Positions 142-32,799 of a stretch of DNA of 32,799 bases are shown in pieces; positions within the stretch are counted from its first letter, which is position 1; each line of letters begins with the position of its first letter. The translations under genes were made by a program, and so were the position numbers. The notes under the pieces were generated by a model. It searched no databases and was not told the origin of the DNA. It saw nothing but the letters and a program-made list of their open reading frames with translations. Source of the DNA: a virus; IMG/VR virus record IMGVR_UViG_3300033183_000402, positions 1 to 32,799 of that record. One strand, written 5' to 3'.

Positions 142-1197
142 TTATTTGACGGGTCTAACCACTTGCCCACCGCGTTGATAAACGCGCTTCGTGATTGATG
201 CATTTGCGTGCCCCAACAAGGCTTGTGCTTGAGCCAATTCAAGGTCAGATGCAGCCTTGGGTCGCGCATCCCTGAATTGAAACTTTTGTATGGATTCGGC
301 AAGCTCGGGGTGAGCCTTTGTGGCCGCCGCTCTAGCCGCCACCAAACGCTTGCGATACATGATTTCGGTGAGCTTGGAGCCGCTGTCTGCAGCAATCACA
401 AATGGGCTGAGTTGGTTCTTGCGGTTGGGTATGGTCGCCCGTATTTCGTCCAGCAAGGCGGCTAAACGCCCCTCTATGACGATTTTGAGCATCTTGCCCG
501 TCTTGGCTTGCTTAACCCATACAAAGCCCTCACGCAGGTCAGACCAGCGCATGGCAAATATGTCGGCTGGGCGCTGCCCGGTTAGGTACGCCAACTCCAG
601 CGCAAATCGCAACTCCGGGCTTGAGTGAGCCAACATGGCATCCCAAGTCCGGTCATCCGCAAAATACTCACGCGGCTTTTCGCTGTGCTTCTTTACGCCT
701 CGGCATGGGTTCTCCTTGGCGGTTAGACCCCACTCACGCGCCTTGTTAAAAGCATGGCTGAATAGTGCCAGTTCTCGATTGGCGCGGACAGGTGCGCCTC
801 GGGCGTCTCTGTACTGTGCAATGTGTTGCGGGGTAATGGCATCAACGGCGACATGGGCGAACGCCTTGCGCAGGAACGACAACTCGTACAGGTTGCCTTG
901 TTGGGTGCGTTTCGCCTTCGTGGGAATGATGTCCCGCTCGTAGCGGTCAAAGACCGCGCCCATCGTTCTTGCATCGCGCGGCACTTTACGACCCTGAAGT
1001 TCAGCCCACTTGCGTGGCACTTCAGCTAGGTCGCTGCCCAGTGAAATTTGCACTCGCTTGCCATCGCTGTCAAAGGTTTGGTAGAAGTAGTACGAGCGGA
1101 CTTCCCCTAGTCTGCTTCTGCCACGCTTGTGCTCAACCACACCCGGCGGCAAGGAACGACCGACCGTCTTATTTCGCCCGCTTCCGATTCCGCCCAT
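142..1197 (-). CDS. int: Tyrosine recombinase / phage integrase
   Basis: 351 aa. The C-terminal catalytic region carries RPADIFAMRWSDL and LLGHANASITKRVYQR (the HxxR...Y signature). ATG is preceded by AGGAG with a 7-nt spacer. The gene is adjacent to the att core. Confidence 0.95.
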   Translation of the reverse strand: MGGIGSGRNKTVGRSLPPGVVEHKRGRSRLGEVRSYYFYQTFDSDGKRVQISLGSDLAEVPRKWAELQGRKVPRDARTMGAVFDRYERDIIPTKAKRTQQGNLYELSFLRKAFAHVAVDAITPQHIAQYRDARGAPVRANRELALFSHAFNKAREWGLTAKENPCRGVKKHSEKPREYFADDRTWDAMLAHSSPELRFALELAYLTGQRPADIFAMRWSDLREGFVWVKQAKTGKMLKIVIEGRLAALLDEIRATIPNRKNQLSPFVIAADSGSKLTEIMYRKRLVAARAAATKAHPELAESIQKFQFRDARPKAASDLELAQAQALLGHANASITKRVYQRGGQVVRPVK

Positions 1198-5920: not shown

Positions 5921-7564
5921 TCAACCAGCTCGCCATTTAACCTCGCCGATGACCGCAAATCGCTCTGATGACTTGCTTATCATCTCGGTTTCGTAGTTCG
6001 GGTTGTCGCTCATCACCACAAAATCACCGTCAATCGACCGCTTGAGCCGCTTGATTTTGAGGTCGTCACCATAGCGAATGGCGTAGACCTTGCCATCTTT
6101 GATTTGGCTCACCGGCTTGCAATCAACCAAAACGATATCGTCGTCGTCCAGGTAGGGCGACATGGAGTCCCCATGCACTCGGAAGCACTTGGCGGTCTTT
6201 GCGTCTATGCCCCGGCTGCTAAAGAAGCTTCGGCGAAACACAAGCGTCTCCTCCTGCACGTCCGGGTGGTACTCGGGCGCTGCGCTGCCCCCGCCAGCGG
6301 CAAAGCGCACCTCGTATAAGCCGACCTCGGCGTAAGTCTCATTGAACTGATCAACGCTGCGTACCGTGGACGGGGCTTCGCCTTCCTCTTGCAAGCCCAT
6401 CTCAAGGGCTTGGGACGAAATCCCAAAGACCATCGCCAGCATCTTGATTGAGGCCGGGGAGGGCGGTGTGTAGCCGTTTTCCCAGTTGGATACCGCCTGA
6501 ACCGACACGTCGAGCAGCTTGGCTACCTCGGTCACGCTCAAGCGGCAGCGCTTGCGCCAGCGGCGGATACGCTTGCCCAGCGCCTCATTGCCCATTTCGT
6601 TGGCTAAATACTTGGCTTGCTGGCTCAGGGCGTCCGTGTCTTGTTGGGTGCTTCCATCGGCTTTTTCCGCAACATCGGCCGCTGCCAACTTAAAGTCGTT
6701 TGCTCGAGTTGGGCGTCCGGTCAGAAGGCGGACGAAATCGTCGAGCCTTTTTTCGTCGGGGTTGGTTTGAAACCAATCGTTAAACAGCTGCTCTAGGTGT
6801 GGGTGCGACGGAAACTCGATGCGCTTGTCTTTGCCTTTGAAGCGCATATACGTGCCGCCGGGGTACCGTTCGGCCAGAATTTCTTTAACCCGGCGAAGCT
6901 GTGCCTCTGCCTCGCCATCAGCGGGGGCTTGCCACTGTTGACTAGCCCACAAATCCTCGACGTAGGCGCTCAGGATGTTGGCCTCAAGTTTCATGCACTG
7001 GGCGGTGACAAGCGTCTCCATGATGGTGTCATCACTGAGCGCGGACTCTGCCGCCGTCGCCACATTGGTCGAGATTAAATACTGCCCGTATATCGAAGCA
7101 GCCTTTTCTTTGACATCCAGCCACGGTGGGTTAGGGGTGCCGAAGTGAATCTCGCACAAAGCACGCCCAACCTCAAGCACTTCATCTTCAGCTAAGTCAA
7201 CCGAGCGCAAGATTTCATACGCATCGCGGTCGCGCTTGCGAAGGGCGTCTTTGTCGGTCAATTCTTTGTAGGTGTACTTGCGTGACTCACTGGGTTTGCT
7301 GTCACCAAACAGGTCAAGCAAGCCCCTGACAACCTGCTTGGCTTCACGCCCGTCGCTTTGGCGGATGCGCTCCTCAATCACATCCAAGCCCGAGCGAATC
7401 ACTTTTTTTGCGTCTGAGTCCCTTGGGAATACGTGGAGGTTGCCCTTCTTTGTCTTTGTCTTTACGCCCTTGGGGTTTTCGCCATCAGCCGTACGGCGCA
7501 CCTTGCTCTCAAGGGGTGCGGCCAAAAAGCCAATCATCGGCTCGTCAGGTTTCTTGGTAGCCAA
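5921..7564 (-). CDS. CI/LexA-type phage repressor (XRE HTH plus S24 peptidase) carrying an N-terminal extension of about 325 aa with unknown function
   Basis: 547 aa.
- HTH around residues 328-385: LGKRIRRWRKRCRLSVTEVAKLLDVSVQAVSNWENG.
- Candidate Ala-Gly autocleavage site in VRFAAGGGS.
- S24 Ser in HGDSMSP and Lys in LKIKRL.
- TTG start with GGAGA 6 nt upstream.
- Residues 1-325 match nothing I recognise. Confidence 0.85.
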   Translation of the reverse strand: MATKKPDEPMIGFLAAPLESKVRRTADGENPKGVKTKTKKGNLHVFPRDSDAKKVIRSGLDVIEERIRQSDGREAKQVVRGLLDLFGDSKPSESRKYTYKELTDKDALRKRDRDAYEILRSVDLAEDEVLEVGRALCEIHFGTPNPPWLDVKEKAASIYGQYLISTNVATAAESALSDDTIMETLVTAQCMKLEANILSAYVEDLWASQQWQAPADGEAEAQLRRVKEILAERYPGGTYMRFKGKDKRIEFPSHPHLEQLFNDWFQTNPDEKRLDDFVRLLTGRPTRANDFKLAAADVAEKADGSTQQDTDALSQQAKYLANEMGNEALGKRIRRWRKRCRLSVTEVAKLLDVSVQAVSNWENGYTPPSPASIKMLAMVFGISSQALEMGLQEEGEAPSTVRSVDQFNETYAEVGLYEVRFAAGGGSAAPEYHPDVQEETLVFRRSFFSSRGIDAKTAKCFRVHGDSMSPYLDDDDIVLVDCKPVSQIKDGKVYAIRYGDDLKIKRLKRSIDGDFVVMSDNPNYETEMISKSSERFAVIGEVKWRAG

Positions 7565-13150: not shown

Positions 13151-13186
13151 GGCCGACGGCCTCCCTTGCGGAGAGTCGGGAAAACT

Positions 13187-13483
13187 ATGGACGATTCCAC
13201 AAAAATAGAGAGAAATAGAGCGGCTGGCAAGCCTCCCCGTGCTGGGATGGGCAGGCCAAAGGGTTGCTCTAACAAGAAGACACAGGCTGCCAAAGACGCC
13301 ATTGCAGACGCTGCACTGGCTTTGGGTGGCACCAAACGGCTGGTCGAGTGGGCCAAGTCCGACCCGAACAATGAGCGGGTGTTTTGGGGCACGATTTACC
13401 CCAAGCTGCTGCCTCTGCAGGTCGGTGGTGATGCTGGCAACCCGATTGAGCACATGGTTGTTGCATGGGCAAGCGAGAGCTAG
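13187..13483 (+). CDS. Putative small terminase subunit / DNA-binding packaging protein
   Basis: The track ORF starts at TTG 13166. I prefer the ATG at 13187. 98 aa. The basic N-terminus GRPKGCSNKKTQ is typical of terS-like/DUF5681 proteins. It lies upstream of terL. Confidence 0.45.
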   Translation: MDDSTKIERNRAAGKPPRAGMGRPKGCSNKKTQAAKDAIADAALALGGTKRLVEWAKSDPNNERVFWGTIYPKLLPLQVGGDAGNPIEHMVVAWASES

Positions 13484-13526: not shown

Positions 13527-13916
13527 TTAGCGGCGCGCCTCGGGGAGTTGCTTCCATAAATCGATGAGAGTTCCCACAACCGTATTTTGGGGGGAAGCGG
13601 TGCAGCGTTTTTTGATTTCCCAGTAAAAGCTGTCGTAGTCGGGGAGTGCCTTTGCGCTCACAGGACGGTTGTTATCCATTTGGGCGGATGCAGTCCCAAG
13701 GTTAAGCCCGCTCAAAAAAGAAGAGAAGGCAACATTCCAAGTTCGTATCCATTGTTTGTTGTCTTTTACTTCCGAGGAGTCTGTTAAAAAGCTGCCGCAG
13801 GAGGCTGTAACGAGTCCCTTCATAACAGAGTCCTCTTTCGCATGGGGTTGACCCATTGCGCCAATCACTAGAGTCAAGGCCAGGGCCAATCGATAGGCTA
13901 TTTGACGAAACAACAT
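13527..13916 (-). CDS. Exported hypothetical protein (Sec signal peptide), antisense moron between terS and terL
   Basis: The track start is GTG 13922. I prefer the ATG at 13916 because GGAGG lies 5 nt upstream. 129 aa. N-terminus MLFRQIAYRLALALTLVIGAMGQPHA|KED. Two Cys in the mature part. The DNA is visibly more AT-rich than the flanks. Confidence 0.75.
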   Translation of the reverse strand: MLFRQIAYRLALALTLVIGAMGQPHAKEDSVMKGLVTASCGSFLTDSSEVKDNKQWIRTWNVAFSSFLSGLNLGTASAQMDNNRPVSAKALPDYDSFYWEIKKRCTASPQNTVVGTLIDLWKQLPEARR

Positions 13917-28388: not shown

Positions 28389-29142
28389 AGTCTCGGAATA
28401 CTCGAGCACCGCCTCGAGCAATACCGACATCGACTCCATCAACATCGACGAGGGGTGTGCGCCGAGCAATATCAACGACGCCATACGCGAGTTGATGGCC
28501 CACCTAAAAGACTGGCAGTCCGGTACTGTCGCCCAAGCTCTCGCGGCTGCGGGGGGCGGTACGGGGCAGACCAGCCTCACCGCAAACAACGTCTTGCTGG
28601 GCAATGGCACAAGCGGCGTGCAGTTTGTTGCGCCTGGCTCGAGCGGTAACGTCCTGACAAGTAATGGCACCAGTTGGACGTCGGCTGCGGCAGCAGCGTT
28701 TGACTCAGGCACGCGCATGATGTTTGCCCAAACATCGGCTCCGACCGGGTGGACAAAAGACACCACCAACTACAACAACCACGCCTTGCGAGTGGTTACG
28801 GGTACGGCTTCGTCTGGTGGTTCTGCGGCGTTTACGACTGCTTTCGGAACGCCCAGTGTGTCTGGCTCTGTAAGTGTGAGCGGTACAGTTGGAGCGACAA
28901 CGCTTACAACGGCTCAGTTGGCAAGCCACAGCCACACAGTAAACACTAGAAGATCAGGGAGCGGTAGCGGCGGCGTGGCGTTTGGTAACTATTCAGACTC
29001 ACAACCATATAGCATCGGCACAACTGGCGCTGGCTCAAACTCATCACACACCCACAGCTTCTCTGGCTCTGGTTCGTTGAGTTCTGCGACTACCGCTATT
29101 AACGTTCAGTATGTTGACGTGATTATTGCAACAAAAGACTGA
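28375..29142 (+). CDS. Tail fibre protein with a phage tail-collar-type C-terminal domain
   Basis: The track starts at 28318. I prefer the ATG at 28375, with GGAGGA upstream. 255 aa. It has a conserved N-terminus (AKTKVSEYSSTASSNTDIDSINIDEG), a collar-like segment (FAQTSAPTGWTKD...LTTAQLASHSHTV) and a Ser/Gly-rich tip. Confidence 0.75.
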   Translation: MAKTKVSEYSSTASSNTDIDSINIDEGCAPSNINDAIRELMAHLKDWQSGTVAQALAAAGGGTGQTSLTANNVLLGNGTSGVQFVAPGSSGNVLTSNGTSWTSAAAAAFDSGTRMMFAQTSAPTGWTKDTTNYNNHALRVVTGTASSGGSAAFTTAFGTPSVSGSVSVSGTVGATTLTTAQLASHSHTVNTRRSGSGSGGVAFGNYSDSQPYSIGTTGAGSNSSHTHSFSGSGSLSSATTAINVQYVDVIIATKD

Positions 29143-29462
29143 TGAAACTTGAAGCAAAAGCCAACTGCCCGCTGGATAAGTTCAAGCCATGCCGTCAGCT
29201 TGACTGCGCGTGGTTTATCAAAATCTCAGGCAAAGACCCGCAGAACGGTGCCGACATTGATGAGCATGGCTGCGCGATTGCTTGGATGCCCCTCCTGATG
29301 ATTGAGAACTCGCAGCAGCAGCGCCAAACCGGCGCAGCGGTTGAGTCTTTCCGTAACGAGATGGTCAAGGCCAACGAGTCATCTCAACAGTTGCTTTTGG
29401 CTACCGCAGCCACCAGTATCCCCACCCTCAAGACAATCAACGGAGGTTCGCTATGCAAATGA
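29142..29462 (+). CDS. Cys-containing hypothetical protein downstream of the tail fibre
   Basis: 106 aa. TGATG overlap with the fibre stop. Contains CPLDKFKPCRQLDCAWF...HGCAIAW. Confidence 0.6.
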   Translation: MKLEAKANCPLDKFKPCRQLDCAWFIKISGKDPQNGADIDEHGCAIAWMPLLMIENSQQQRQTGAAVESFRNEMVKANESSQQLLLATAATSIPTLKTINGGSLCK

Positions 29463-29764
29463 CAATTGTTGCCGACGACAAGTCCATCGGTATCGACCAG
29501 CAGCACATTGCTCCCCTAGAGATGCCGCAACTTGACGCGGCCATTCACGCCGTGCAGTGGTACGACACTTGGGGCGAGGTCGAGTACAAGACCGTCTTGG
29601 TTGACGGCGTGCCCACCAAGCCGCTAAATCAAACCATAACCGACATCACGCCCTACCAGTGGGCGGTGACCGTGTGGACTGACGCCAAAGCCATCCTCGA
29701 CGCCGAAGCAGCCGCCGAAGCAGCAGCCGCCGAAGCAGCAACCGCTGCCGCTGGAAGTGAGTAG
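29453..29764 (+). CDS. Hypothetical protein with an Ala/Glu-rich tail
   Basis: 103 aa. GGAGG lies 6 nt upstream of the ATG. Confidence 0.6.
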   Translation: MQMTIVADDKSIGIDQQHIAPLEMPQLDAAIHAVQWYDTWGEVEYKTVLVDGVPTKPLNQTITDITPYQWAVTVWTDAKAILDAEAAAEAAAAEAATAAAGSE

Positions 29765-29864
29765 CAGGGCAGTAGTCCGGCCTCTACTTCCGCCGATATC
29801 CCGCGTGGCGTTGAACCAGCCTTTCTGAATAAAACCCTGCCTTAAGCAGAGCAAGGTCAATCAA

Positions 29865-30056
29865 ATGGTCACAGAAGTCGAGAGCCGCCTGTCGGCCCAT
29901 GAGCAGGTGTGCGCGGAACGCTACGCCGTAATAAACACTCGCCTCGACGGGGTCGATGCTCGCCTCAAGCGGCTGGAGCGCATCATCATGAACGCCGTCG
30001 GAGCTTTGCTTGTCGGCATGGGCGGGATGATTGCCGCCATCGTCATGAGGGTCTAA
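29865..30056 (+). CDS. Small tail-anchored membrane protein
   Basis: 63 aa. N-terminal coiled coil and a C-terminal TM segment AVGALLVGMGGMIAAIVM. Confidence 0.55.
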   Translation: MVTEVESRLSAHEQVCAERYAVINTRLDGVDARLKRLERIIMNAVGALLVGMGGMIAAIVMRV

Positions 30057-30536
30057 ATGGAACCCCTCAGCATCCTTGCGGCTGCCTCCGCTGCCGTAGG
30101 GACTGCCAAGCGCCTAGTCGAAATGGGCGGCGATATTGAGAACATGATTCAGCAACTGGGCAAGTGGGCTTCCTACGCCGACCAGCTTAGGTCATGGGCT
30201 GGCAGGGTGGAAAGCAAGCCGCCCCTGTTCAAAGCGCTGAACTTTGGCAACGCCACCCAAGAGGCGCTCAACGCCGTCATGGTGAAAAACAAGCTGGCGG
30301 CCCAAGAGAAAGAAATCGCCGAGTTGCTCCAGTGGCACGCGCCACCTGGGTCGTATGAGGCGTTCATTGCCGAGCGGCGGCGTATCCGCACCGAGCAGAA
30401 CCGGATGATTTACCTGCAAGCCCAGCGGCGCAAGGCGTTTTTAATCAACGCGGGGTATTTGGGTGCGCTAGCGGTGCTTTTGAGTGCGCTGGCGTGGTTG
30501 GGCTTTATTGGCTACGAGATGTGGCAGGGGCGTTAG
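30057..30536 (+). CDS. Hypothetical membrane protein with a C-terminal TM segment
   Basis: 159 aa. The start abuts the upstream stop (TAAATG). The C-terminal TM segment is FLINAGYLGALAVLLSALAWLGFIGY. Confidence 0.6.
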   Translation: MEPLSILAAASAAVGTAKRLVEMGGDIENMIQQLGKWASYADQLRSWAGRVESKPPLFKALNFGNATQEALNAVMVKNKLAAQEKEIAELLQWHAPPGSYEAFIAERRRIRTEQNRMIYLQAQRRKAFLINAGYLGALAVLLSALAWLGFIGYEMWQGR

Positions 30537-30537
30537 G

Positions 30538-30864
30538 CTATTTGCAGCTAGCTTGGCCAAGGGTGACCCGTTTATTCTGGTTTACCAAGACGCCAATATC
30601 TATGACTTTGACGATGACCTTTTTGCCTTTCAGCCCCTCGTCGTACAAAACCTCGCAGACGTAATTCGCGTAACCGTTGCGATTGGTGCCGTCATTAAGC
30701 ACCCCCACCAACAGGGTGCCCGGGGTTGACCACGCCGCGTCTTTGATTTTGACCTCCTCCTTAATCGGTTTTTGCGCCACAGCTTTCTGTTTGCTCTCGG
30801 GGATGGAGGCTTCATAGGGTTTATCTGTGCCGCTGAAATCACAAAAGCTCACCCCGAAACTCAA
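30538..30864 (-). CDS. Hypothetical protein of the antisense moron cassette (start unresolved)
   Basis: 108 aa from TTG 30864. The in-frame upstream sequence encodes a hydrophobic segment (WRLGWVIIF) but has no ATG, GTG or TTG. The region is AT-richer and convergent with the late gene that ends at 30536. Confidence 0.5.
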   Translation of the reverse strand: MSFGVSFCDFSGTDKPYEASIPESKQKAVAQKPIKEEVKIKDAAWSTPGTLLVGVLNDGTNRNGYANYVCEVLYDEGLKGKKVIVKVIDIGVLVNQNKRVTLGQASCK

Positions 30865-30960
30865 AAAAATAATTACCCAGCCTAATCTCCAAATATTGAA
30901 TCCCCGTGGTGTCGATGCAGGATTAGGCGGCCAATACGAGCTGTGAAAATGGCTGAAGCG

Positions 30961-31602
30961 CTAGATGTCATCCTTATTTTTAAGCTGCCGTTTTTCTTCC
31001 TTTAATCGCTGCCGGCGCATCGCCTCACGCCATGTTTCGCCAGCCATCTCAATACCCCAGCCCCGCCCGCAAGACTCGGACTTCAAGGCTAAAGTTTTTC
31101 CGTTAGCTTCCCAAAGCCACCAGTCGCAATTCTTTGACTGATTCTTCTTACGAGTCCACATTCCATATTTTGATGTCAAGGCTTGGATGAGGTCTAGCGA
31201 CTCGCCTTCGTAAAAGCCTTCGACAGTAAATTTCGCTACCTTTCCTCCAAGGATGGCGAAGCGGATGGGTCGCCATCTTCCAAGGATTCTGATGTGCATT
31301 TGCTCTAGCCTTGGGTCGGCCTGGAATACGCCCGGTGGAGGCAGGCCATCCCTCTCAAGGCGGGCAAAATTGCCGCTCTTGGCCATACGTTCTTTTTCAC
31401 ACTTTTGCCGGCTTCGTACTGCGTTATTGCCCTCAACCCAGCGCTTCTCACTGAAGTACCGTTGCCTTTCGACCCAAAACTCTTTGTGGGTCTTGACGAC
31501 CAATCCGCAATCCAGTTCAACGTCGACAGAAAAGCCTTTTACCTCCAAAGCGTGGGCGTGAACAGCAAAGGCCAATAGCGCCGCTGCAGTTAGTTTTTTC
31601 AT
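30961..31602 (-). CDS. Exported hypothetical protein (Sec signal peptide), antisense moron cassette
   Basis: 213 aa. GGAGG lies 6 nt upstream of the ATG. Signal peptide MKKLTAAALLAFAVHAHA|LEV. Four Cys and a highly charged C-terminal tail. Confidence 0.75.
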   Translation of the reverse strand: MKKLTAAALLAFAVHAHALEVKGFSVDVELDCGLVVKTHKEFWVERQRYFSEKRWVEGNNAVRSRQKCEKERMAKSGNFARLERDGLPPPGVFQADPRLEQMHIRILGRWRPIRFAILGGKVAKFTVEGFYEGESLDLIQALTSKYGMWTRKKNQSKNCDWWLWEANGKTLALKSESCGRGWGIEMAGETWREAMRRQRLKEEKRQLKNKDDI

Positions 31603-31622
31603 ACCGAACCTCCGAGGTGCAG

Positions 31623-32180
31623 ATGCTTACTTTACTACTTTCATTTTTGACCGGGACTATTGGCCCGCTGCTGCCAAACCTGCTGGGGTTGTTTCGCGAG
31701 GCGTCGGACAAGAAGCACGAGCGGGCGATGATTGAGCTTCGCATGAAGCACGCCGCCCAAGAGCACACGTGGCGTATGGAGGAGATATCTGCCCGGGCCG
31801 ACATCGAGGAGGCCAAGGTGCTCCACAAGCCGCAGGGGTCATTTGGGGTGCAGTTGATTGACGCCGCTGACAAGTGGGCTGACTCCACGTGGGGCAAGTG
31901 TCTGGTCACCCCGGCCTTTTACGCCTTTGTGCTGCTGGACTTCGTAAACGGGCTGGTACGGCCCACCATCGCGTATGCCGCCTTTGGGTTCTACATGGCC
32001 TACAAGTGGTCGGTCTACCAAATCGCTGTGGAGTCGATGGAGACGGTTCAGGCCATCAACCAGACCTGGGGCGAGAACGACTGGGCGGTGCTCTTAATGG
32101 TGCTGGGTTTCTTCTTTGGGCAGCGGGCTGCCAAGGCGGTGCTGGGTGGCTCGACCTCCACGGGCAAGGCCAATGGATGA
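31623..32180 (+). CDS. Holin (multi-TM, resembles the 3TM GTA-type holin family)
   Basis: The track starts at GTG 31617. I prefer the ATG at 31623, with GAGG 5 nt upstream. It has an N-terminal hydrophobic segment, a charged helix, then TM segments (VTPAFYAFVLLDFV, IAYAAFGFYMAY, WAVLLMVLGFFFG). It overlaps the endolysin start. Confidence 0.6.
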   Translation: MLTLLLSFLTGTIGPLLPNLLGLFREASDKKHERAMIELRMKHAAQEHTWRMEEISARADIEEAKVLHKPQGSFGVQLIDAADKWADSTWGKCLVTPAFYAFVLLDFVNGLVRPTIAYAAFGFYMAYKWSVYQIAVESMETVQAINQTWGENDWAVLLMVLGFFFGQRAAKAVLGGSTSTGKANG

Positions 32181-32619
32181 GGTGCTGGAGATAGCCGCCG
32201 AGATAGCCAAGCCATTTGAGGGGCTACGGCTGAAGGCGTACCACGACCCCGTGGGCTACCCAACGCAGGGCTATGGGCGGCTGCTATCCCGAACCCCGTG
32301 GGCACCCCTAGAGGGCTACCCCGACATCGACGAGCACACCGCCGAGGAGTGGCTAAAGGCCGACATGGCTCGGGCGGTGAGGGCAGCCATCAGGCTATGC
32401 CCGGGGGCTGAATCCCCAGCCCAATTGGCTGCCTTGGCCGACTTCGCGTTTAACTGTGGTGGGGGCAATTTGCAAGTCAGTACCCTGCGGCGCAAGGTAA
32501 ACCGTAAAGATTACCTTGCTGCTGAGGCTGAATTTGCCAAATGGGTCTTTGCTCGGGGCGTGAAGTTGGCCGGGCTGGTGAGGCGTCGCAAGGCCGAGGC
32601 GAGGGTGTTCGGCGGATAG
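32173..32619 (+). CDS. Endolysin, GH24 lysozyme
   Basis: The track starts at 32116. I prefer the ATG at 32173. 148 aa. FEGLRLKAYHDPVGYPTQGYG carries the E-x8-D-x5-T catalytic signature. Confidence 0.85.
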   Translation: MDEVLEIAAEIAKPFEGLRLKAYHDPVGYPTQGYGRLLSRTPWAPLEGYPDIDEHTAEEWLKADMARAVRAAIRLCPGAESPAQLAALADFAFNCGGGNLQVSTLRRKVNRKDYLAAEAEFAKWVFARGVKLAGLVRRRKAEARVFGG

Positions 32620-32640
32620 TTAGTCCGACGGTCTGAGGCA

Positions 32641-32715
32641 AAAAAGCGTTCAGCAAAAAGAGTCGAGTCCTACGCACTCAAGGGCTAAAAAACAGGTTTT
32701 ATGCTGAACGTTTTT
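32641..32715. promoter_or_regulatory. Long-loop inverted repeat next to attR carrying the arm-type motif
   Basis: AAAAAGCGTTCAGCA (32641-32655) pairs with TGCTGAACGTTTTT (32702-32715). The perfect core is 9 bp (CGTTCAGCA) and the loop is about 46 nt. The motif resembles CGTTCATCAAAA near attL. Confidence 0.5.
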
Positions 32716-32752
32716 GGCGCTAACTCAATGATTTTTCAAAGCAACTTGAGTA

Positions 32753-32799
32753 GACTGTTAATCCGCAGGTCGCAGGTTCGAGCCCTGCTCGGGGAGCCA
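32753..32799 (+). repeat. attR core (right copy of the 47-bp repeat; a displaced tRNA-Asn 3' fragment, not a full tRNA)
   Basis: Exact copy of 1-47. The upstream sequence (GCAACTTGAGTA) cannot form the tRNA 5' half. Confidence 0.9.

Follow-up and report, generated by a model that had tools for sequence, protein, structure and literature searches.

What are two minus-strand genes doing in the middle of a late operon whose own genes all lie on the plus strand? The question is raised by the IMG/VR virus record IMGVR_UViG_3300033183_000402, whose contig was analyzed at its full length of 32,799 bp and is referred to below as the window. The two genes, here called g1 and g2, are located between the gene for a late membrane protein of 159 amino acids (aa) and the gene for the putative holin, and we refer to the whole as the cassette (Table 1). 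The answer that we favor, with a probability of about 0.58, is that the cassette is a moron (for the definition, and for the role of morons in exclusion, see PMC3594210) that encodes envelope proteins, has a promoter overlapping the start of the holin gene, and acts on the envelope of the lysogen. An earlier inspection of the DNA without database searches (the sequence-only reading) had placed two minus-strand genes at this junction, and both open reading frames (ORFs) were confirmed.

The insertion at the holin junction

Nine loci in IMG/VR encode the same holin (loci from other contigs are numbered L001, L002 and so on). Three of these, L008, L010 and L011, have holins 78% identical to that of the window and carry no minus-strand genes at the junction; there, the 159-aa gene has a 151-aa counterpart whose stop codon overlaps the holin ATG in the sequence TAATG, and the holin gene overlaps the endolysin gene in turn. 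In L013-L015, another plus-strand gene abuts the holin gene. Because the junction is contiguous in these relatives, the 1,086 bp at positions 30537-31622 are extra DNA, which lies flush between two translationally coupled genes, and the insertion that had been proposed from the letters is supported by synteny.

The fit at the two ends is exact, and agrees with the earlier description in each respect. On the left, the stop codons of g2 (30538-30540) and of the 159-aa gene (30534-30536) converge with 1 nt between them. On the right, 20 nt separate the g1 ATG (31600-31602) from the holin ATG (31623-31625), and the sequence CCTCCGAGG at 31609-31617 holds both ribosome-binding sites back to back, reading GGAGG for g1 on the minus strand and GAGG for the holin on the plus strand.

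The inserted DNA also differs from its surroundings in composition. The two genes have G+C contents of 49.7% (g2) and 51.1% (g1), as compared with 0.59-0.63 for the flanks, and the 1-kb interval with the lowest G+C of the entire contig starts at position 30601 (0.509, versus a mean of 0.575 with a standard deviation (sd) of 0.021, i.e., approximately 3 sd below the mean). The lower G+C seen in the sequence-only reading is thus real, and marks the lowest kilobase of the contig, but the hand-counted range of 42-50% has to give way to actual values of 49.7-51.1%.

Both genes are real and under purifying selection. The ratios of nonsynonymous to synonymous substitution (dN/dS), calculated for the window versus the island and Logan copies, are 0.15-0.26 for g1 and 0.06-0.19 for g2, and it is because of this low overall range (0.06-0.26), together with the existence of homologues elsewhere, that we judge the genes to be real. 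Neither frame contains a frameshift or an internal stop codon. A fusion of g1 and g2 by read-through was considered, as the two are in the same frame and are separated by one TAG and a 66-nt spacer without a further stop, and was rejected: the distance from the g1 start to the g2 start is 709 nt in the island copies (described below) versus 708 nt in the window, so that the frames differ there and read-through is unlikely to matter. A search of positions 29000-32799 against Rfam gave no match.

A holin fragment that travels with the cassette

The cassette is mobile between phages and islands. At 79-85% DNA identity it is found on five other contigs (L001-L003, L005 and L006), in the order g1-g2-g3, where the additional gene g3 encodes a 127-aa protein with a predicted signal peptide. 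L001 is an integrative island with an integrase, an excisionase-like helix-turn-helix protein, a primase-like/AAA protein, a resolvase and a CHAT-trypsin pair, and is without lysis or virion genes. Homology between the islands and the phage extends 49 nt beyond the g1 ATG, to window position 31651, and therefore takes in the first 29 nt of the holin gene.

This 29-nt block is identical at 29 of 29 positions to the corresponding DNA of L001, L003 and L006. By comparison, the g1 coding sequences of the window and L001 are 81% identical, with a longest identical run of 16 nt, and the chance of 29 consecutive matches at the DNA identity of the whole cassette (78.7%) is approximately 0.001. The peptide MLTLL(L/M)SFLTG is conserved in every relative of the holin, whether or not a cassette is present, which identifies the fragment as holin-derived and indicates that the islands received the cassette from a phage of this kind. 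Since the islands have no holin, yet have kept the block perfectly, the block must serve the cassette itself. The promoter that the sequence-only reading had put within the holin coding sequence gains comparative support from this.

Within the block, the 12-mer AAGTAGTAAAGT is invariant in all seven upstream regions, and is retained in L005 even though the DNA on either side has diverged. It occurs once in the window and, among the loci fetched, only upstream of copies of the cassette. No gene start in the window is richer in AT than the first 30 nt of the holin gene (30% G+C, in a gene whose third codon positions have a G+C fraction (GC3) of 0.81). The AT-rich start is shared by the sister phage L007, while cassette-free holin genes of comparable composition have 47% G+C at this place; as a sign of an embedded promoter this is suggestive only. 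We propose that host RNA polymerase would transcribe the cassette from a weak or factor-dependent promoter, with the TAAAGT in holin codons 3-4 as its -10-like element. Such a promoter would be independent of the late operon, and could be on in the lysogen.

The junction has a different filling in L007, which is the closest phage to that of the window (holin 98% identical). Reading leftward from its holin gene, one finds g2, then the g2-g3 spacer with the first ~9 codons of g3, then a second holin 5' fragment, and finally a gene for a 160-aa protein. The second fragment carries a g1-type ribosome-binding site and the start of a signal peptide, and the 29-nt block is therefore duplicated, standing ahead of both antisense genes. 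The 160-aa protein shares with g1 the upstream block, the signal peptide, an E(V/I)KG start (48% identity over 46 aa) and a C-terminal ...K-x-DI; the rest is unrelated, which suggests recombination within the leader-coding region. The junction preceding g2 in L007 (CCTCGGAG joined to AATTAAAATG) looks like a deletion of g1 between two similar ribosome-binding sites. L007 has a further antisense gene between the holin and endolysin genes (Table 1), for a 107-aa protein with a hydrophobic C-terminal half that gave no family match; it shows the flush antisense arrangement at a third junction. Insertions that are flush, antisense and head-to-head thus occur twice in the window and at least twice in L007. 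The ancestral layout may have been holin/g1-g2-g3, with cassettes being stacked or swapped through recombination at the holin fragment and then trimmed by deletions; the phage of the window would have kept g1-g2 and lost g3 at this site, while the start of g2 decayed to ATT.

The other insertion in the window lies between terS and terL, and has the same head-to-head layout, as had been noted from the sequence. The gene (G+C 0.50) is preceded by the ribosome-binding site AGGAGG, its ATG and that of terL are separated by 11 nt, and its product begins with the predicted signal peptide MLFRQIAYRLALALTLVIGAMGQPHA, followed by K. The product is a homologue of island g3 (34-37% identity in a full-length alignment, the value of 34% being over 128 aa; pairwise E 2e-25, two conserved Cys). 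This gene, too, is an insertion: terS directly adjoins or overlaps terL in 16 relatives, and g1, g2 and g3 are absent from all of 80 terL loci. Of the two independent insertions proposed earlier, separate acquisition holds, because the g3-like copy has diverged much further than g1 and g2 have and was not moved from the cassette; the cargoes are not unrelated, as both belong to one set of genes. The phage of the window therefore holds one member of each family, with g1 and g2 at the holin and a g3-type gene at terL. This co-occurrence in two different arrangements is moderate evidence that the three exported proteins would work together as a three-gene module.

The encoded proteins and the phage that carries them

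The N-terminus of g1 is MKKLTAAALLAFAVHAHA/LEV, where the slash marks the presumed end of the leader (as it does below). Judged by inspection, it has the features of a Sec (type I) signal peptide, namely a basic n-region (MKK), an 11-residue core (LTAAALLAFAV) and the cleavage region H-A-H-A/L with small residues at -3 and -1; there is a single strongly hydrophobic stretch, and the hydropathy peak does not extend beyond residues 4-16. The signal peptide, the four Cys and the charged tail had all been picked out by the sequence-only reading, and comparison adds weight to each: the Cys (C32, C68, C159 and C178) are invariant in all five known homologues, and the charged C-terminal helix is conserved. 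In other respects g1 belongs to an orphan family. A word-indexed search of 5.8 billion proteins yielded two homologues, an exhaustive profile search of 1.84 billion representatives returned only its own 50%-identity cluster, and there was no match in GTDB genomes, in IMG/VR, or in searches of Pfam, PHROGs, NCBIfam, PADLOC and PDB sequences. The one Pfam line, to ProQ_C (E 0.019), was rejected because it falls on the signal peptide. The AlphaFold model, made from three sequences, is poor (pLDDT, the predicted local distance difference test score, 43.6), and little weight can be given to its top Foldseek match (DUF4309 YjgB, E 1.7e-3). The earlier statement that these proteins match nothing thus holds for g1 and fails for g2, which belongs to phrog_7191 (E 6.7e-27, residues 25-108 of the 108-aa ORF versus profile positions 53-136 of 136).

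The profile search found 174 relatives of g2, in Vibrio, Mannheimia, Actinobacillus, Pseudomonas, Comamonas and many metagenomes, and all of them are annotated as hypothetical. These relatives bear on where g2 starts, for which there are three calls: a TTG giving 108 aa (mechanical ORF list), a GTG giving 104 aa (Joint Genome Institute, JGI), and position 30894, giving 118 aa, which is the best reading. The closest relatives start MWRLGWVIIFL..LSFC/DF, and their ATG (present in four close relatives) aligns with an ATT at 30892-30894 in the window; the ribosome-binding site, CGGAGA in the relatives, is CGGGGA here. In this phage g2 has either lost its start codon or is left with a rare one. As to the earlier suggestion that the 108-aa product is exported by means of a hydrophobic segment upstream, the segment is the real leader of the family, and the gene is best read as 118 aa. 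The leader ends in V-S-F-C/DF in the window and in L-S-F-C in close relatives, others having L-V-T-C or a plain A-x-A signal peptide; lipidation of g2 is possible, and is not predicted by the lipobox rule. If these leaders function as their form suggests, g1 would cross the inner membrane by its Sec signal peptide and g2 by a hydrophobic leader ending in Cys.

The core of the g2 family is a domain of ~75 residues (EPKVKDAxW...VGVxDDGxxRDGYAxYxC...VxVIDI...LGxAxC) with two invariant Cys, and it is always preceded by an export device, which may be a signal peptide, a leader with a terminal Cys, or a zinc ribbon on the cytoplasmic side with a transmembrane anchor. The AlphaFold model of g2 is confident (pLDDT about 90 for residues 30-118) and shows a two-layer alpha/beta fold, so the mature protein is modeled as a globular alpha/beta domain of ~95 residues. 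Its best Foldseek match is 4jm1/BDI_0842 (E 0.04, probability 0.99, target template-modeling score (TM-score) 0.60, 26% identity over 74 columns).

The genes around the g2 relatives are consistently accessory and often linked to lysogeny. In Mannheimia P2-like phages the relative lies downstream of cI on the same strand, and one of the family, PHL101 ORF33, was annotated by its depositors with its own promoter and terminator. Another is at the end of a Pseudomonas Mu-like prophage, and others adjoin an integrase (L018) or XRE-type regulators (L028 and L033), or sit inside a tail module (L030). In prophages of V. cholerae (L037:5448-6333, L038 and L039) the relative is part of a two-gene cassette antisense to virion/late genes, which pairs it with a 181-aa canonical lipoprotein (LIAGC) near a GTA_holin_3TM gene. 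Phages of another type here provide an independent example of a similar layout.

The contig begins and ends with an identical 47-nt direct repeat (1-47 = 32753-32799), which matches the 3' part of a tRNA-Asn gene (anticodon loop CTGTTAA) and is either an attachment core or the overlap of a circular assembly. Given this repeat and the integrase gene adjoining it, the contig is a complete temperate phage genome that was either cut at the attachment site or assembled from a circle. The portal, scaffold and capsid genes group the phage with small podoviruses, the portal protein being 52-62% identical to those of Methylophilales phage Venkman and the freshwater 'Manatee Spring' phages; a search of GTDB species representatives with the holin found no related prophage. 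The start of the endolysin gene is corrected here to the ATG at 32173. After this gene, positions 32620-32752 are non-coding and hold no recognized spanin-like genes, and this 130-nt gap before the attachment core contains an imperfect inverted repeat (GCGTTCAGCA ... TGCTGAACGT, at about 32646-32715). The 63-aa and 159-aa membrane proteins encoded upstream of the cassette (29865-30536) are candidates for breaching the outer membrane. For the repressor-like ORF, which is unusually long, either the N-terminal 320 residues are unmatched or the true start is further downstream.

Table 1. Features of the window, and of locus L007 where stated, that are discussed in the text.
Feature	Position	Strand	Remarks
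g1, 213 aa, exported (predicted)	30961-31602	minus	Sec-type signal peptide, four invariant Cys, charged C-terminal helix
g2, 118 aa, exported (predicted)	30538-30894	minus	phrog_7191 family; hydrophobic leader ending in Cys
g1-g2 spacer	30895-30960	minus	Homologous to spacer of island copies
Divergent spacer, 20 nt	31603-31622		Holds g1 and holin ribosome-binding sites
29-nt block	31623-31651		Holin codons 1-10; candidate promoter/operator region of g1
Invariant 12-mer AAGTAGTAAAGT	31629-31640	minus	Contains -10-like TAAAGT (31629-31634), ending 26 nt before g1 ATG
g3-like gene, 129 aa, exported (predicted)	13527-13916	minus	Between terS (13166-13483) and terL (13928)
Late membrane-protein gene, 159 aa	30057-30536	plus	Left boundary of insertion
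Putative holin, 185 aa	31623-32180	plus	phrog_6637, weak GTA_holin_3TM match; right boundary of insertion
Endolysin	32173-32619	plus	Phage_lysozyme E 6e-31; overlaps 3' end of holin gene
Terminator-like hairpin, 8-bp stem and T-run	29834-29852	minus	Gap between 103-aa and 63-aa genes
Integrase gene	142-1197		Beside one terminal repeat; lysis genes on the repeat's other side
Repressor-like ORF, 547 aa from TTG	5921-7564	minus	cI-type repressor match in residues 320-544 only
L007 160-aa exported protein (predicted)	L007:5036-5518	minus	g1 position; stop overlaps stop of 159-aa gene
L007 107-aa membrane-protein gene	L007:6555-6878	minus	Between holin and endolysin; overlaps holin stop, head-to-head with endolysin start

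Weighing the readings and comparison with known systems

In the reading that we favor, the proteins would act on the envelope of the lysogen, and their most probable job is protection against superinfecting phages or another attack from outside. By analogy with Cor, Llp, Ltp, SieA and gp15, none of which gave a match, protection of the envelope is the likeliest role. Several results weigh against this reading. Two strict scans and one relaxed scan gave no -35/-10 pair at a conserved position, and no canonical sigma-70 promoter in any copy of the cassette; the promoter is probably weak, unusual or activator-dependent. AT-rich gene starts also favor translation initiation, and the AT-rich start of the holin gene is therefore not specific to a promoter. 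Nor does the cassette appear to have a terminator of its own, as no terminator-like site was found after g2, at its junction with the converging 159-aa gene (none had been seen there in the sequence-only reading either). The nearest minus-strand candidate for stopping the transcript is a hairpin ~690 nt past g2, in a 100-nt gap (Table 1), and its support is weak, the regional count of such sites not being above the shuffled expectation. Because of its ATT start and weakened ribosome-binding site, g2, which makes up half of the cassette, may be made in small amounts or be in decay in this phage. The g2 leader does not fit the canonical lipobox [LVI][ASTVI][GAS]C, having F at -1 (F, T or L across the family). 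The fold matches of g2 are weak (E 0.04 for 4jm1, E 3e-3 for phage 'lipoproteins' in BFVD); matches to PF21903 from two members of its family are sub-threshold (15.4 bits versus a Pfam cut-off of 27), and no PDB sequence relative was found. The rejected ProQ_C line aside, neither g1 nor g2 has a Pfam match at E<=0.1 or any NCBIfam match, g3 has no match in PDB, Pfam, PHROG, phage or IMG/VR searches, and for known families in general there is no PADLOC, NCBIfam or Pfam match and no solved relative, so that function is argued from context and analogy. A literature search for functional work on the g2 family found none. Finally, the cassette-bearing phages that were found are all of one lineage: an 18-mer scan of IMG/VR with the holin block found the L007 contig only, the other ten matches being chance occurrences in AT-rich phages.

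The state of the g2 start gives some substance to the view that the cassette was functional in an ancestor with the layout holin/g1-g2-g3 and is now a decaying passenger. The deletion of g3 flush with the neighboring stop codon also speaks for it, as do the loss of g1 and the truncation of g3 to ~9 codons in L007, from which it follows that the site turns over quickly. Both frames are intact, however, the GGAGG, ATG and upstream block of g1 have been kept perfectly, the genome still has a divergent g3-type gene at another site, and an ATT start can initiate at a low level, as that of infC does in E. coli. We regard decay as unlikely. Quite unlikely, in our estimation, is an orphan immunity set, that is, exported proteins that neutralize the periplasm-acting toxins of competitors (type VI effectors, bacteriocins or lysozymes) and not phages. 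Small, disulfide-capable proteins predicted to be periplasmic and carried on mobile elements would suit such a role; one member of the g2 family is named 'Rap1a immunity protein domain-containing' in UniRef, and another has a VasI match in an N-terminal extension. The Rap1a name could not be reproduced, since neither the named protein nor the g2 and g3 members give a Rap1a Pfam match at E<=10, and no effector gene is seen beside any copy, nor is there a PDB sequence match.

The position of the two insertions raises the possibility that the design is mainly regulatory, with control of the holin (and terL) by antisense transcription or promoter occlusion and the proteins being secondary. The facing start codons have 20 nt between them at the holin and 11 nt at terL; a late transcript has to run through 1.09 kb of antisense cassette before it comes to the holin gene; a polymerase bound at the proposed promoter would occupy the holin start, which appears to have been recoded to AT-rich codons; and in L007 a further antisense gene is head-to-head with the endolysin. 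Antisense interference with the holin or terL is plausible from this geometry. As the main function we consider it very unlikely: with the -10 element at 31629-31634, the cassette mRNA would overlap the holin leader by no more than ~20 nt, purifying selection acts on the coding sequences, whose export signals are retained, and the cassette has the same structure in islands, where there is no holin for it to control. Both the conservation of the coding sequences and the copies in islands speak for the proteins as the primary payload. That g1 and g2 are lysis accessory genes expressed late, i.e., spanin equivalents, an antiholin or a lysis regulator, is barely credible. The cassette does adjoin the holin and endolysin genes, no spanin genes are recognizable in the non-coding DNA behind the endolysin, and the g2 leader ends in Cys like that of a lipoprotein. 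Against this, g1 and g2 are on the strand opposite to the lysis genes, are missing in phages that share this holin and endolysin, and occur in islands without lysis genes, while relatives of g2 adjoin repressors, integrases and tail genes, not lysis genes. The architecture is also wrong, as g1 has a predicted cleavable signal peptide and not an N-terminal membrane anchor followed by a coiled coil, and mature g2 is modeled as a globular domain and not as a short proline-rich lipoprotein. On these grounds of strand, distribution and architecture, an identity with Rz/Rz1 was rejected.

If the cassette is a moron of the kind that we favor, the locus illustrates how accessory genes may enter compact single-strand late operons, namely in antisense and flush with gene boundaries, where late transcription is not halted by them and is not needed for them. 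Conservation within the cassette is highest in a piece of an essential gene (holin codons 1-10) that has been carried into non-phage islands, and this fragment marks both the direction of transfer and the location of the control element. The two insertions in one phage, being neighboring genes of a single module elsewhere, are a testable hint of joint function. The recurrence of phrog_7191 in prophages of Pasteurellaceae, Vibrio and Pseudomonas makes it a candidate for functional screening as a lysogen-protective envelope protein. A stronger claim, which we put forward as an improbable one, is that g1, g2 and g3 constitute a previously undescribed three-component periplasmic module with the first 29 nt of the holin gene as its portable control element. 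If that were true, the promoter and both ribosome-binding sites would share ~50 nt with the holin start, so that expression of the cassette and translation of the holin would be mutually exclusive, and envelope protection would be on in the lysogen and off exactly when the lysis genes fire. The holin fragment would then also be a homology arm for the stacking and swapping of cassettes (as in L007) and for their export to non-phage islands.

Among known systems, those nearest to the cassette in our preferred reading are the morons in the sense of Hendrix and colleagues, such as HK97 gene 15 and lambda bor and lom (PMC3594210). Like these, the cassette is extra DNA at a junction that is contiguous in close relatives, differs in composition from its flanks, and has cargo that is predicted to be directed to the envelope. 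It differs from them in having no recognizable promoter-terminator pair; instead, its promoter region would overlap the first codons of the holin, a piece of which moves along with it. Lambda bor, which the sequence-only reading had offered as a precedent, is apt in position, since the cassette is likewise near the lysis genes and a prophage end, and not in protein family, there being no Pfam match to the Bor family. Indeed, Bor, Lom and gp15 show no sequence or family relation to the cassette proteins.

T5 Llp, phi80/N15 Cor, TP-J34 Ltp and P22 SieA are further small prophage proteins that are exported, lipid-anchored or in the membrane (PMC3594210, PMC3952083, PMC10883804), and the cassette proteins have no sequence or fold match to them. 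The defense models of PADLOC likewise gave no match at E<=0.1 for g1, g2, g3 or the partner proteins of L007. The best structural match of the g2 model is the BDI_0842 family (PF21903; 4jm1), which has a fold like that of the alpha-lytic protease prodomain, and the Pfam scores for that family lie below the cut-off. PHL101 ORF33 is in the same family as g2 (51% identity over g2 residues 26-118) and is also an accessory gene of a temperate phage with a predicted exported product, but it is a single gene on the repressor strand, whereas g2 comes second, after g1, in an antisense cassette next to the holin gene and has no ATG. The Rz/Rz1 spanins share with the cassette a location next to the holin and endolysin genes and two products that are predicted to be exported, one of them with a Cys-ending leader, and are unlike it in strand, conservation, architecture and size. 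The cassette would thus be a phage moron, a class that is already known, and does not overturn current understanding; the details that are new are that a fragment of the holin gene travels with the cassette, that the three-gene module is split between two sites, and that insertion recurs in a flush, antisense and head-to-head form.

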